From a virus (taxonomy: Duplodnaviria > Heunggongvirae > Uroviricota > Caudoviricetes): a stretch of DNA of 5,822 nucleotides. The position numbers and the translations under genes are program-made. A model generated the notes under the pieces. The model did not search any database and was not told the origin of the DNA. It saw nothing but the letters and a program-made list of their open reading frames with translations. Positions 1,574 to 5,380 of the stretch are shown here, one piece after another (positions within the stretch are counted from its first letter, which is position 1; the number at the start of each line of letters is the position of its first letter). The DNA is taken from the IMG/VR virus record IMGVR_UViG_2541047425_000019, one strand, 5' to 3'.

Positions 1574-1759
1574 GTTGACCTCATTTCCCCTTAACGCCGG
1601 GTAGCGGAACAAAAACCTGCTGCATAGTTATTAAAGTTGAACCCTGCCGTCATGTTCATACGCCTCGGGCTGGCTACTTACCCCCTGACCACTGCTTGGT
1701 AACTCGAAGTATTGCCCGGCGTTCTGTGGGGCGGGGTGGGTGGTTGGTGTATGTAATCT

Positions 1760-1799
1760 ACAATAAAAAACTGTTTTTGTGTCAACAGTTTTTAATTGT
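1760..1799. promoter_or_regulatory. Operator-like inverted repeat (OL analogue) with candidate leftward promoter
   Basis: ACAATAAAAAACTGT (1760-1774), 10-bp spacer, ACAGTTTTTAATTGT (1785-1799); the left arm is identical to the 15-mer at 2795-2809. A perfect TTGACA -35 hexamer on the minus strand (complement of 1780-1785) lies inside the element; the -10 is ambiguous (TAGATT at a 19-nt spacing). Confidence 0.5.
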
Positions 1800-1809
1800 T
1801 GTTTTGGGC

Positions 1810-1832
1810 AAAAAAATCCCTCGAAAGAGGGA
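1810..1832 (-). terminator. Rho-independent terminator of the repressor/TA operon (t_imm-like)
   Basis: Minus-strand transcript reads TCCCTC-tttc-GAGGGA followed by TTTTTTT, 19 nt after the parE stop: a 6-bp GC-rich stem, 4-nt loop and U7 tract. Confidence 0.5.
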
Positions 1833-1850
1833 GTATGAAAATTGTTCAAC

Positions 1851-2138
1851 TCAGATAGAGAAGGGAAATTGTCGCCGAGAATGTGTCACGCTTACAATCT
1901 CAATGCTTGAAGCAGCTACTCTGTACAGGATTATGTAGTTAGGGTGGGTCACGATCTCTCTCAATCCAGAAACCCGTTCGCTTGGTGGATATAAGTACGG
2001 ATGCTCAGATAGAGGTAATACCGATGTTTCAATGCGTATTTTTAGTCTACGTGCTGCCGGTGGGTTCTCCTTGGCGATGTAAGTTATGATCTGGCGCAAA
2101 TCATCGCGAGCAGACGGTAGCCATAAAATGGGTAACAT
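1851..2138 (-). CDS. parE: ParE/RelE-family type II toxin (95 aa)
   Basis: Track ORF; the sequence (…ARDDLRQIITYIAKENPPAARRLKIRIETSVLPLSEHPYLYPPSERVSGLREIVTHPNYIILYRVAASSIEIVSVTHSRRQF…) has the characteristic ParE pattern. Its start overlaps the antitoxin stop as TAATG (2136-2140), a classic translational coupling. Confidence 0.85.
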   Translation of the reverse strand: MLPILWLPSARDDLRQIITYIAKENPPAARRLKIRIETSVLPLSEHPYLYPPSERVSGLREIVTHPNYIILYRVAASSIEIVSVTHSRRQFPFSI

Positions 2139-2329
2139 TACTCGCTCTTGTTAGTTACAGCAATTTGAGCAATAAGATTTTCCATTTCAGCCATTACCTC
2201 GTCATGTGGAATTGCGGGGCGAGTGTCTGCAAGGCTTGACGTTACTTTAGTGCGCAACCATTCGTTGTAACTGTTTTCTTGTTCGGTAGTTTCGAATTCT
2301 GAAACTATCGGAGAAAGGGCTGTACCCAT
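2138..2329 (-). CDS. paaA: PaaA-like antitoxin (63 aa) partnered with ParE
   Basis: Track ORF; ATG (complement of 2327-2329) preceded by GGAG with a 7-nt spacer. The product (…SPIVSEFETTEQENSYNEWLRTKV…RPAIPHDEV…) resembles, from memory, the PaaA2 antitoxin of the E. coli O157 paaR2-paaA2-parE2 module. Small, acidic, immediately upstream of and coupled to parE. Confidence 0.75.
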   Translation of the reverse strand: MGTALSPIVSEFETTEQENSYNEWLRTKVTSSLADTRPAIPHDEVMAEMENLIAQIAVTNKSE

Positions 2330-2356
2330 GGCATAACTCCTCTTCTTGTACTGTGG

Positions 2357-2758
2357 TCACGCCCGGCGGCTTTTTTGTGCCGCCAGCCACCTAGCAATGG
2401 TTTCTTCCATTGATTTTTTCTTGTCTTTGATTTCTTGAAGCATTTTTTCTTGGTCTTCCTCAGGAAACGCACTAAAAGCTTGGAGCAGTTCGCGTTGGCG
2501 AGGACCAATTTTCATCGTGTCAGGGGTGAAAATTTGCTCACACTCTTCAGGAGGCAATAAAAACCAATGCAATGGATGCCCTGAAACCTCAACCAGTTTA
2601 TCCAAACTTGAGGCTTTAGGTGTAGCCTTACCGCTGACCCATTGTTGAACAGTTTGTTGTGTCACACCAATTCTACGGGCAAGCTCAGCCTGGCTCCATC
2701 CAGTTTCCTGAAGAAGCTTGCTGATTCTGTACATAGATACTTCTAGGGCGCTCATCAT
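2357..2758 (-). CDS. paaR: DicA/PaaR-like HTH (XRE-family) transcriptional repressor; likely the CI-type prophage repressor and TA regulator (133 aa)
   Basis: Track ORF; N-terminal HTH (…WSQAELARRIGVTQQTVQQWVSG…) and a C-terminal region resembling the DicA C-terminus (…RQRELLQAFSAFPEEDQEKMLQEI…). Transcribed divergently from the cro-like gene. No SD before the ATGATG start, and a TAAAAT -10-like hexamer sits 7 nt upstream, so the mRNA may be leaderless. The exact start (M1, M2 or M9) is uncertain. Confidence 0.8.
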   Translation of the reverse strand: MMSALEVSMYRISKLLQETGWSQAELARRIGVTQQTVQQWVSGKATPKASSLDKLVEVSGHPLHWFLLPPEECEQIFTPDTMKIGPRQRELLQAFSAFPEEDQEKMLQEIKDKKKSMEETIARWLAAQKSRRA

Positions 2759-2866
2759 TATTCAATTTTACAGGTAAATACTGTTAAAAGCATCACAATA
2801 AAAAACTGTTGATTGCATACAGTTTTTTATTGTAGGCTTTGCTTATAGTTTTTAGAGGAGGGCAAA
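2759..2866. promoter_or_regulatory. Divergent promoter/operator region (OR analogue; PRM-like leftward and PR-like rightward promoters)
   Basis: Perfect 15-bp inverted repeat ACAATAAAAAACTGT (2795-2809) / ACAGTTTTTTATTGT (2819-2833) with a 9-bp spacer; extra ACTGTT / ACAG half-site-like motifs at 2770-2785. Rightward TATAGT (2844-2849) lies just upstream of the cro SD; leftward TAAAAT (complement of 2765-2770) lies 7 nt before the repressor ATG. The -35 elements are weak or ambiguous. Confidence 0.6.
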
Positions 2867-3139
2867 ATGCTAGATAGCACTCGCGAAAAAATTAGGCAGA
2901 AATACACTCAGGCTGAAATAGGTCGTTATATGGGGGTCGCTCAACAGACTGTTTGGCAATGGTTTAGCTTTGGCGTTCCCCCAAAGCAGGTAATTCCGTT
3001 ATGCCAACTAATGAAGTGGGAAGTTACCCCGCATGAAATCCGCCCAGATATTTATCCTAACCCAACCGACGGTTTACCTGTTGGATGTAAGGTTAACACA
3101 TCAAATGCGCCGGAGTTGATTCATGAAAATCAAGCATGA
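2867..3139 (+). CDS. ydaS: Cro-like HTH regulator of the YdaS family (90 aa)
   Basis: Track ORF; GGAGG 6 nt upstream of the ATG; HTH (…IGRYMGVAQQTVWQW…) and the YdaS-family hallmark …VTPHEIRPDIYP…. First gene transcribed rightward from the operator region. Confidence 0.8.
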   Translation: MLDSTREKIRQKYTQAEIGRYMGVAQQTVWQWFSFGVPPKQVIPLCQLMKWEVTPHEIRPDIYPNPTDGLPVGCKVNTSNAPELIHENQA

Positions 3140-3548
3140 ACACATCCGCATGGCGATGAATGCCTGGGCGCATCCGGACGGCGAAAAAGTACCGGCTGCG
3201 AAAATTACCAAAGCGTATTTCGAGCTGGGAATGACGTTCCCGGAACTGTATGACGACAGCCATCCGGAAGCCATGGCTCGCAATACTCAGAAAATTTTCC
3301 GCTGGGTGGAGAAAGACACTCCTGATGCGGTTAAAAAAATTCAGGCGTTGTTACCAGCGATCGAAAAAGCGATGCCGCCTCCGCTGGTGGCCCGAATGCG
3401 CAGCCACAGTTCCGCTTATTTTCGGGAGTTGGTAGAGACGAAGGAACGGCTGGTGAAAGATATTGATGATTTCGTTGCATCAGCGATCGTTCTGTTCGAT
3501 CAGATGAATCGTGGTGGCCCGGCAGGAAACACTCTGGCTGTGCATTAA
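3123..3548 (+). CDS. ydaT: YdaT-like protein (141 aa), proposed functional analogue of CII in Rac/CP-933P-type prophages
   Basis: Track ORF; N-terminus MKIKHEHI… matches my recollection of YdaT proteins. It overlaps the end of the cro-like gene by 17 nt in another frame, typical of a coupled operon; GGAG lies 7 nt upstream. Confidence 0.75.
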   Translation: MKIKHEHIRMAMNAWAHPDGEKVPAAKITKAYFELGMTFPELYDDSHPEAMARNTQKIFRWVEKDTPDAVKKIQALLPAIEKAMPPPLVARMRSHSSAYFRELVETKERLVKDIDDFVASAIVLFDQMNRGGPAGNTLAVH

Positions 3549-4288: not shown

Positions 4289-5380
4289 ATGCGTGATTAC
4301 GCAAAAGTTTCTCCGCGATTCTGGCTGGGAGAAACGGGGAGAGAACTTAGAAAGGCGGGTGCAGAAGCGCAAGTTGTTGCTTTTTACCTGATGACATCCC
4401 CTCACGCAAATATGCTGGGTTTGTATTACCTGCCAGTTTTATACCTTGCTCATGAAACCGGGCTTGGTCTGGAAGGGGCTTCAAAGGGGCTTAAAAGGGC
4501 TGTTGAAGCTGGTTTTTGTAGCTATGACCATGATGCAGAGATGGTCTGGGTCCATGAAATGGCAGCCTGGCAGGTTGGGGAAACGTTGAAGCCTGGCGAT
4601 AACCGTTGTGCAGGTGTCAGGAATGAGTATGCATCATTACCTGAAAACGCTTTTCTGTCAGTGTTTTACGACAGATATAAAACGGATTTCCATCTGGATG
4701 TGAGGCGGAATAATAGCCGAAATTCGGTAAGGGGCTTCGAAGGGGCTTTTAAGGGGCTTCGAAGCCAAGAACAGGAACAGGAGCAGGAGAAAGAACAGGA
4801 ACAGGACAAAAACACTATGGTTCATGGCAAAAAAAACACCACGAACCAGGCAGGGGATGTTCAGACCGTCAATCCTGGTCAGCCAGCAGGCACGACACCG
4901 GAAGCCGATTCGGGCGCTGTGCAGCAGGTGATGACCGCAGGGTCGGAGCAATCACACCAACTGCAGCAGCCTGAAGCCGATTCCGCCATTCAGCGGGAAG
5001 CCGATCGGGTAGTCCCGGAAAGCACCGGGCAGTCTGTGGGACGAGTGGATTATCCGGATGTGTTCGAACAGGTCTGGCGGGAATACCCGTTGCGTGCTGG
5101 GGCAAACCCGAAGAAATCCGCTTTCAGTGCCTGGAAGGCCAGATTGCGCGAGGGGGTGCCACCAGAGACCATGCTGGATGGTGTGAGGCGTTACGCGAGA
5201 TACCTGGCGGCGACCGGGAAAGCGGGAACGGAATTTGTTCAGCGAGCGACGACGTTTTTTGGGCCGGACCGGAATTTTGAAAACCCCTGGTTGCTCCCGG
5301 TAAGCGGCACGAACAACCAGCGTTGTGTGAATCATATTTCTGAACCGGATACCGAAATTCCGCCGGGATTCAGGGGGTGA
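4289..5380 (+). CDS. Phage replication initiation protein (O-like; N-terminal DNA-binding region, low-complexity EQ-repeat linker, C-terminal domain of the conserved phage type) (363 aa)
   Basis: Track ORF 4178..5380 trimmed to ATG 4289, which has GAGG 5 nt upstream. Sits directly upstream of the DnaC-like gene with a 6-nt gap. The C-terminal region (…YPDVFEQVWREYPLRAGANPKKSAFSAWKARLREG…) recalls the conserved C-terminus of phage replication proteins; the family assignment is from memory. Confidence 0.7.
   Translation: MRDYAKVSPRFWLGETGRELRKAGAEAQVVAFYLMTSPHANMLGLYYLPVLYLAHETGLGLEGASKGLKRAVEAGFCSYDHDAEMVWVHEMAAWQVGETLKPGDNRCAGVRNEYASLPENAFLSVFYDRYKTDFHLDVRRNNSRNSVRGFEGAFKGLRSQEQEQEQEKEQEQDKNTMVHGKKNTTNQAGDVQTVNPGQPAGTTPEADSGAVQQVMTAGSEQSHQLQQPEADSAIQREADRVVPESTGQSVGRVDYPDVFEQVWREYPLRAGANPKKSAFSAWKARLREGVPPETMLDGVRRYARYLAATGKAGTEFVQRATTFFGPDRNFENPWLLPVSGTNNQRCVNHISEPDTEIPPGFRG
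4726..4812. repeat. Iteron-like direct repeats and hexanucleotide repeat inside the O-like gene (candidate origin)
   Basis: AAGGGGCTT-type 9-mers repeated three times at 4728-4760, including palindromic GGCTTCGAAGCC (4755-4766), then (GAACAG)-like repeats at 4767-4806 and an A-rich tract. A related cluster AAGGGGCTTCAAAGGGGCTTAAAAGGGCT lies at 4473-4501. Confidence 0.4.

Follow-up and report, generated by a model that had tools for sequence, protein, structure and literature searches.

Two inverted repeats, about 1 kb apart, flank an operon encoding a repressor, an antitoxin and a toxin in the viral sequence analysed here, a stretch of 5,822 bp (the window) from the tailed-phage record IMGVR_UViG_2541047425_000019. 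Are these repeats the operators of a lysogeny switch and, if so, what is the unit that the repressor would recognize? We consider it highly probable that they represent the OR1-OR2 (right) and OL1-OL2 (left) operator pairs of the lysogeny switch of Sp4, a prophage of Escherichia coli O157:H7 that we take to be equivalent to CP-933M. What can be read directly is the architecture of the sequence, its conservation in relatives and its covariation with the recognition helix of the repressor.

The window is the immunity region of Sp4. Its central 1521 bp (1620-3140) exhibit 100% identity to the feature annotated as 'prophage Sp4, lambda-like phage' in E. coli O157:H7 Sakai, and the same segment is 100% identical in EDL933 and in many further O157:H7 genomes. 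At least 80% of this segment is present in 509 of 5426 complete E. coli genomes. A homologue of the paaR2-paaA2-parE2 / ydaS-ydaT switch of prophage CP-933P (Sp12) is reportedly named by Hallez et al. in 2010. Such a homologue is also mentioned in a 2021 mBio paper on CP-933P (PMC8630535), and the window appears to be that homologue. By analogy with PaaR2, we use the name PaaR1 for the 133-aa repressor of the window.

Operator-like sites in the two control regions

The 15-mer ACAATAAAAAACTGT occurs on the plus strand at 1760-1774 and again at 2795-2809. Its reverse complement is found at 2819-2833 (perfect) and at 1785-1799 (with one mismatch). The four copies form two inverted pairs, 1760-1799 and 2795-2833, with a start-to-start distance of 1035 bp and with arms separated by 10 bp in the left pair and 9 bp in the right pair. 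A first-pass annotation of the sequence had reported these palindromes, and its coordinates and sequences prove exact. Four matches at up to three mismatches are observed in the window against 0.28 expected, and none of 200 dinucleotide shuffles reaches four.

Each 15-mer is itself pseudo-palindromic (ACAAT-AAAAA-ACTGT). The pattern ACAR-N7-YTGT exhibits exactly five matches in the 5822 bp (0.42 expected; 0 of 200 shuffles reach five). All five are located within the two control regions, and no other match is found in the 9.5-kb Sakai locus. The fifth match, overlooked in the first-pass annotation, lies 25 bp to the left of the right-hand pair. A position weight matrix (PWM), trained on the sites of relatives only and with the window sites excluded, gives the five sites 18.0 to 19.8 bits, against 6.0 for the next best position in the window and 15.3 for the best among 200 shuffles. 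The five predicted 15-bp operators, none of which is assigned to a strand, are OL1 (ACAATAAAAAACTGT, or ACAGTTTTTTATTGT when read in the direction of the leftward promoter; 1760..1774, 19.8 bits), OL2 (ACAGTTTTTAATTGT; 1785..1799, 18.0 bits), OR3 (ACAGGTAAATACTGT; 2770..2784, 18.3 bits), OR2 (ACAATAAAAAACTGT; 2795..2809, 19.8 bits) and OR1 (ACAGTTTTTTATTGT; 2819..2833, 19.6 bits). A third OL site is found neither in the window nor in any relative examined.

The long palindrome had been taken as the operator unit. Each of its arms is instead a complete candidate operator, so that every palindrome contains two of them. On the sequence evidence, the binding unit is the 15-bp pseudo-palindrome ACA(A/G)T-N5-A(C/T)TGT and not the 39-bp palindrome. 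The 15-bp site is the conserved element, because relatives keep the 15-mers while neighbouring sites are often not inverted copies of each other and the hairpin potential is lost. The 39-bp palindrome belongs to the E. coli lineage, where OR1 and the reverse complement of OR2 happen to be the same sequence. Searches of the available literature (for the four 15-mers, for 'paaR1', and for CP-933M with repressor and operator) found no description of these operators, and Rfam exhibits no match in the control regions.

Register with predicted promoters and conservation in relatives

The repressor gene (start codon at 2758, minus strand) and the divergent ydaS gene (start at 2867, plus strand) are separated by three sites spanning 2770-2833, which are interleaved with predicted promoter hexamers. 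The predicted rightward promoter PR exhibits a -35 TTGATT (2809-2814, plus strand) in the 9-bp gap between OR2 and OR1, a spacer of 18 bp holding OR1, and a -10 TAGGCT (2833-2838) whose first T is the last base of OR1. The two sites at 1760-1799 form a second cluster beyond the repressor operon, with a predicted leftward promoter PL on the minus strand. Its -35 TTGACA (1785..1780) is flanked by the two sites in their 10-bp gap and shares the last base of OL2. After a spacer of 19 bp holding OL1, the -10 TAGATT (1760..1755) begins on the last base of OL1. The minus-strand TTGACA and the location of the left pair just past the operon terminator had been noted in the first-pass annotation, and both are present. 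In general terms, TTGAnn begins on the last T of O2 and fills the gap between O2 and O1, and TAnnnT begins on the last T of O1. The centre of O1 is thus predicted near -19, and that of O2 near -43/-44, of both PR and PL (OR2 near -43 of PR).

For the predicted promoter of the repressor operon, PRM, a -10 but no -35 is assigned; the -10 is TAAAAT at 2770..2765 (minus strand), and OR3 is the spacer operator. Relative to the predicted start, OR3 is centred near -19 and OR2 near -44. As had been noticed previously, this -10 stands next to the repressor start, 6 nt before the ATG at 2758, and no Shine-Dalgarno sequence is found between the two. The repressor mRNA is probably leaderless, because the PRM -10 ends 6 nt before the ATG. 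The spacing is conserved in relatives, and a leaderless start has been shown for paaR2 of CP-933P by 5' RACE (Jurenas et al. 2021, mBio, PMC8630535). PR, PL and PRM were assigned by hand from the conserved register and are predictions. A second candidate for the PR -10, TATAGT at 2844-2849, looks stronger but was rejected: it is not accompanied by a -35, its transcription start would fall inside the Shine-Dalgarno sequence, and it is absent from relatives.

Relatives were defined as loci encoding repressors 48-80% identical to that of the window, and were mainly obtained through exact-protein look-ups. A scan by repressor alignment with one genome per species returned almost only generic helix-turn-helix (HTH) proteins, its useful yield being a locus of Arsenophonus (L003). 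The other relatives are from Salmonella (L083-85), Raoultella (L086/87), Pluralibacter (L091) and Morganella (L092). All of them exhibit three OR 15-mers in register between the repressor gene and the ydaS-like gene, spaced by 24/25 bp, with the pattern missed by one or two bases at OR3 of Morganella and OR2 of Arsenophonus. Two OL sites, 23-24 bp apart, are found downstream of the repressor operon despite the differing cargo genes, an arrangement kept in six diverged lineages. Of 60 half-sites, 59-60 have ACA at positions 1-3; position 4 is occupied by A in 28 and by G in 32, and 46 have T at position 5. Among the relatives' sites, the central 7 bp are variable, though A/T-rich. The first-pass annotation had proposed that A6/T6 tracts pre-bend the DNA; the tracts are not conserved, and what persists is merely an A/T-rich centre. 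Throughout, OR3 exhibits the most G+C-rich centre, with a mean of 3.5 G+C at positions 4-12 compared with 1.0-1.7 for the other sites. In phage 434, A/T-rich operator centres bind better than G/C-rich ones (PMC1636474). By this analogy a weaker binding is predicted for the G+C-rich centre, and OR3 is therefore presumably the weaker site.

The register with the promoters is conserved as well. The -35 TTGAnn is invariably flanked by O2 and O1, and the -10 TAnnnT shares its first base with the last T of O1 or of OR3. TTGAC is kept at the PL -35 position in all relatives and TTGAnn at the PR -35 position. The TAnnnT adjoining OL1 reads TAGATT, TAGCAT or TAATCT in the Enterobacterales relatives and is less clear in Arsenophonus. 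The counterparts of the PR -10 are TAGTCT, TATTCT, TAGTAT, TAATAT, TATCCT and TATTTT. For PRM, the succession of TA(A/G/T)AAT, 6 nt and ATG is kept in the enterobacterial relatives. The promoter/operator register as a whole holds in the window and in the enterobacterial relatives, and Arsenophonus fits it less cleanly.

Two further loci exhibit variations of this pattern. In a Klebsiella michiganensis locus (L093, 2926-2989), the recognition helix starts with AQQ instead of TQQ, and one half-site is altered in OR1 and one in OR2 (ACAACAAAAAACAGT, ACCGTTTTTTATTGT); these alterations could reflect a shift of specificity or decay. In E. coli prophages with a P0062-type repressor (L088, 2985-3001), TAAAAT, 6 nt and an ATG point to a start that precedes the called one by three codons (ATGAAGCGAATGACT). 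The N-terminus annotated for this type of repressor is therefore probably too short by three residues.

The difference between the two gaps (9 and 10 bp) and the mismatch in the left pair had been proposed to tune affinity. We examined 14 IMG/VR contigs with the OR1/OR2 pair, 13 of them reaching leftward as far as OL. Both OR and OL are found in 12 of these 13 same-immunity loci; the OL pair lies about 1035 bp away in 12 of the 13, and 683 bp away in one (L172). Ten loci exhibit a perfectly symmetrical OL, ACAATTAAAAACTGT-N9-ACAGTTTTTAATTGT. The extra T in the gap, together with the ACAATAAAAAACTGT arm, is observed only in the two IMG/VR loci having the window's OL sequence. Among complete E. 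coli genomes, the OL region is present at 99% identity or more in 243 and at 95-99% in 202, and the examples listed from the latter group are 1 bp shorter. Rather than tuning affinity, the extra base, which in the contigs sampled occurs only at loci carrying the OL sequence of the window, would lengthen the PL spacer: it sits in the gap that holds the PL -35, and the spacer is 18 bp in the variants with a 9-bp gap and 19 bp in the window. The most direct predicted effect of the insertion would be this 19-bp rather than 18-bp PL spacer, along with a 1-bp change in the phasing of OL1 and OL2.

The conservation pattern bears on three other explanations of the repeats. According to one of them, each 39/40-bp palindrome is a single operator whose 15-bp arms are the half-sites of one symmetric oligomer, with the A-tracts and the spacer setting affinity. 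In the window, complementarity between the arms is indeed perfect at OR and nearly so at OL, the OL is a perfect palindrome in most same-immunity relatives, and in several lineages O1 and O2 lean toward inverted rather than direct similarity, which would suit a dyad-symmetric dimer of dimers. However, the arm centres are separated by 24-25 bp, a distance that the two HTH domains of a single dimer could not span, and every arm is pseudo-palindromic by itself (ACAR...YTGT). OR3 is a lone 15-mer standing in register with no partner arm. In Raoultella, and at the OL of Salmonella, the layout is kept although adjacent sites are not inverted repeats of one another. We regard the single-operator explanation as improbable. 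Still less probable is that the likeness of the left and right regions merely reflects duplicated or recombined PL/PR promoter modules, the repressor acting at OR alone and the left copy having no regulatory sites. The match between the two does extend beyond the 15-mers into the -35 TTGA and the -10 TAG (17 nt at 100% and 18 nt at 94%). Against this, PL and PR of the diverged relatives differ in their centres and hexamers while both keep the ACAR...YTGT ends, and PaaR2 and YdaS each repress the CP-933P equivalent of PL about 100-fold (PMC8630535). Finally, the palindromes might act not as operators but through hairpins or cruciforms of DNA or RNA, for example in replication, in recombination or as terminators working in both directions. 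This explanation is hardly credible and was rejected: single-strand folding is better than in shuffles (OL, -10.4 kcal/mol, z = -3.7; OR, -13.6 kcal/mol, z = -5.7) and the OL element adjoins a terminator, but the hairpin potential is not conserved (z = -0.1 for the Raoultella OR; the Salmonella OL sites each self-fold), the stems contain only A/T pairs and match no Rfam family, and conservation concerns the ACA/TGT ends and the way these stand in register with -35 and -10, not the complementarity from arm to arm.

The repressor, its Cro-like counterpart and known systems

The repressor gene (2357..2758, minus strand; Pfam HTH_3, E-value = 2.3e-12) encodes 133 aa. Its closest relative of solved structure is the 434 repressor's DNA-binding domain (E-value = 3e-5 over 57 residues), with a low overall similarity. 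The HMMER alignment to the 434 structures 2r63 and 1per places QAELAqkvGtTQQsieQ of 434 against QAELArriGvTQQtvqQ of the window. The recognition helix, TQQTVQQ, thus exhibits Gln-Gln at its start and a third Gln four residues further. In 434 co-crystal structures the contact glutamines are residues 28, 29 and 33, and the three of them read ACAA. An AlphaFold model of the repressor exhibits helices at 4-67, a disordered stretch at 75-82 and helices at 86-132, which correspond to an HTH domain of five helices and, after a linker, two C-terminal helices. A fold search with this model returned generic XRE/434-type HTH domains only (434 repressor 1pra, TM 0.78), and no match for the C-terminal domain. 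No Peptidase_S24 domain (RecA-stimulated autocleavage) is detected in the 133-aa repressor, and PaaR2 likewise has none.

The Cro-like protein YdaS is encoded at 2867..3139 (plus strand, 90 aa; Pfam YdaS_toxin, E-value = 8e-10). Its recognition helix is AQQTVWQW, and the protein exhibits local similarity to the repressor HTH. The Gln-Gln helix is found in YdaS of all loci with ACA-type sites and is absent in YdaS of the CP-933P type. The fact that YdaS also carries this helix supports the view that the repressor and the Cro-like protein share operators, as in 434. In loci whose repressors have Lys or Arg in place of Gln39, the last Gln of the recognition helix, the strict motif is missing, yet sites are found at equivalent places in the same layout: ACAC...GTGT-type sites in L094, other repeats common to OL and OR in L088, and a looser ACA-N9-TGT in L095. 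From this covariation of helix and site, together with the CP-933P experiments, we infer that the repressor (and YdaS) binds to the sites described above.

The sites themselves resemble those of 434, whose operators are 14-bp sequences of the ACAAT-N4-ATTGT type with contacted outer bases and non-contacted centres (PMC1636474). The HTH domain of five helices, whose recognition helix opens with Gln-Gln and has a third Gln, the invariant outer ACA, the A/G at position 4, the predominant T at position 5, the A/T-rich centre, the Gln-Gln helix in both the repressor and the Cro-like protein, and the tripartite OR are all common to the two systems. In contrast to 434, the window exhibits two OL sites instead of three, and its repressor has a short helical C-terminal domain, not a RecA-sensitive one.

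The operator positions of the window also resemble those of the lambda OR. As in lambda, the repressor is predicted to be co-transcribed with non-essential cargo from PRM into a leaderless mRNA, PL and PR are each overlapped by a cluster of operators, one on either side, the operators are spaced by 23-25 bp, and OR2 is centred at about -42 to -44 of PRM. The lambda features follow established knowledge and the summary given in PMC8630535. The differences from lambda concern the length and sequence of the operators, the fold of the repressor beyond the generic HTH, the two rather than three OL sites, and the lack of an SOS-cleavable repressor in the window. OL and OR are separated by about 1.0 kb in the window and by about 2.4 kb in lambda.

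The closest parallel in circuitry is CP-933P, in which the footprints of PaaR2 and YdaS overlap at OR, both proteins repress PR and PL, and low PaaR2, an octamer, activates PRM (PMC8630535). Both prophages reside in the same host strain and have the same gene order and cargo (regulator, PaaA and ParE, with divergent ydaS-ydaT). Both have OR between the divergent genes, OL/PL beyond the toxin-antitoxin operon, a regulator without an autocleavage domain and with a leaderless mRNA (predicted in the window), and a YdaT site TTGATT-N6-AATCAA at the ydaS/ydaT junction. The regulators are not homologous over their full length. Residues 37-133 of the window repressor alone align with the PaaR2-type regulator (42% identity over 98 aa), which identifies a C-terminal domain in common. 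The N-terminal DNA-binding domain is 434-like in the window and belongs to a different fold family in PaaR2 (PDB 7nkv). The solved PaaR2 structure comprises the N-terminal domain only (7nkv, 8c3k, 8c3l), and the PaaR2-type regulator of phage Evi begins with MQKKE, like purified PaaR2. Correspondingly, the operators of CP-933P are 18-bp palindromes with the half-site GTTTAGTAA, in contrast to the three OR and two OL sites of the ACAR-N7-YTGT type in the window, and no match to ACAR-N7-YTGT is found in the control regions of the Evi/CP-933P-type locus. Since their operators are unrelated, Sp4/CP-933M and Sp12/CP-933P should be heteroimmune despite the common C-terminal domain.

The proposed switch and its surroundings

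The first-pass annotation suggested that OL/OR-like clusters flank the repressor/toxin-antitoxin operon as in lambda. This is very probably the case, the arrangement being conserved in relatives and having been shown experimentally for CP-933P. Its further suggestion, that one repressor controls both early operons, is supported by the same conservation and the same experiments, and each cluster overlaps an outward predicted early promoter.

From these features and analogies we infer binding, promoter activity, the order of site occupancy and looping as follows. One dimer of the 133-aa repressor would occupy each 15-bp unit, the A/T-rich centre acting by indirect readout as in 434. PR would drive ydaS/ydaT and the replication genes rightward, and PL the DUF1391 gene and the genes beyond it leftward. 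O1 lies within the promoter spacer, and therefore repressor on O1 and O2 should exclude RNA polymerase. Transcription of the repressor-PaaA-ParE operon from PRM would give a leaderless mRNA. The position of OR2 (about -44) suits activation of PRM by repressor bound there, and at high concentration the repressor would fill OR3 and shut PRM off. The Cro-like YdaS, with the same Gln-Gln helix, probably competes for the same sites. PaaR2 being an octamer, octamer-mediated looping is plausible here as well: the C-terminal helical domain common to the two regulators could bridge OL and OR (1035 bp) in a loop.

Several points weigh against this reading. A consensus promoter scanner, at its own thresholds, called none of PR, PL and PRM; the -10 hexamers TAGGCT and TAGATT are weak, and the 19-bp spacer of PL is unusual. 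OL exhibits two sites, unlike in lambda and 434. The sites are 15 bp long, with one extra central base pair compared with the 14 bp of 434, and the 434 contact model may not transfer exactly. The analogy with CP-933P reaches the circuit and not the protein-DNA interface, since the DNA-binding domains are unrelated. Octamerization of the repressor is assumed, from the shared C-terminal domain by itself.

A more specific proposal, which we consider unlikely, is that the repressor is a natural chimera of a 434-type Gln-Gln DNA-binding domain and a PaaR-type octamerization domain, reading ACA...TGT sites of 15 bp rather than 14 bp, and that the perfect O1/O2 super-palindrome of the E. coli lineage has been selected and is not accidental. 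If so, a dyad-symmetric dimer of dimers would clamp the -35 from both sides, and two tetramers, one at OL and one at OR, would form an octamer loop. In this defective prophage, the 1-bp insertion in the window's variant of OL would then put OL1 out of phase with OL2, and PL and the loop would become partly uncoupled.

The genes around the predicted switch complete the picture of an immunity operon with cargo. Downstream of the repressor gene, the minus strand encodes a 63-aa PaaA-type antitoxin (2138..2329; Pfam PaaA2, E-value = 5.6e-19; PDB PaaA2 3zbe, E-value = 1.4e-20) and a 95-aa ParE-family toxin (1851..2138; Pfam ParE_toxin, E-value = 2.9e-17; RelE/ParE toxin in RefSeq), the antitoxin stop codon and the toxin ATG sharing one base. 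The order regulator, PaaA-type antitoxin (without a DNA-binding domain) and ParE toxin is that of a PaaR-PaaA-ParE operon, and the toxin-antitoxin pair is the cargo of the immunity operon. A hairpin followed by a T-run, resembling an intrinsic terminator, ends the operon at 1810..1832 on the minus strand (the terminator is also placed at 1832..1817) and adjoins the left operator pair on the right side of the latter. In E. coli, PaaA/ParE occupy the slot that separates the repressor gene from OL. In Salmonella, Raoultella, Pluralibacter and Klebsiella the slot contains unrelated proteins of 112-306 aa without Pfam hits (L083, 3553-3915; L086, 3530-4171; L091, 3550-4008; L093, 3523-4443), and L172 has a shorter insert. 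This slot appears to behave like the moron position of lambda rexAB, a cargo site read from the predicted lysogenic promoter.

To the left of about 1742, the DNA is kept in prophages of other immunity types, 1715-1741 being invariant in a four-way alignment. Divergence by immunity type begins at the PL -10/OL1 and extends rightwards, a boundary that fits the classical exchangeable immunity region. An untranslated leader of about 135 nt (1613-1745), from PL to the DUF1391 gene, is conserved across immunity types (L002, L088, L110). Its transcript is C-rich (ACCCACCCCGCCCCACAG), and the leader could serve as a signal for antitermination or for processing. A full-length gene for the small RNA DicF is found downstream of PL, in the early-left region, at 127-178 on the minus strand (Rfam RF00039, 76.9 bits, E-value = 2.8e-16).

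To the right of ydaS, the 141-aa YdaT (CII-like) is encoded at 3123..3548 on the plus strand (Pfam YdaT_toxin, E-value = 1.2e-9), followed by replication genes. A perfect inverted repeat TTGATT-N6-AATCAA (3116..3133, not assigned to a strand) covers the end of ydaS and the ydaT start codon. In CP-933P, the high-affinity YdaT site OM has been defined in motif and position by footprinting (PMC9986795). The repeat is identical to OM in both respects; it is likely the high-affinity YdaT site of a PRE-like promoter, which suggests that a YdaT-activated promoter of this kind, reading back to the repressor operon, is conserved. The TTGATT at 2809-2814 was rejected as a YdaT half-site, having no AATCAA partner 6 nt away. 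Within the replication-initiator gene (4178/4289-5380), iteron-like GGGGCTT(C/T)NAAGGGGCTT repeats and a tandem AAGAACAGGAACAGGA repeat occur at 4468-4509, 4724-4776 and 4767-4806. These repeats may indicate that an origin lies inside the gene, as is the case for lambda O.

The switch described here is an ordinary variant of a well-studied one, and it leaves the accepted picture of lambdoid switches unchanged. Enterohaemorrhagic E. coli O157:H7 has many lambdoid prophages, and for one of them an operator map that can be tested is now provided; the map comprises five sites, three promoters and a consensus for the half-site. Sp4/CP-933M and Sp12/CP-933P constitute a natural pair for questions of mixed oligomers or of cross-talk between co-resident prophages.

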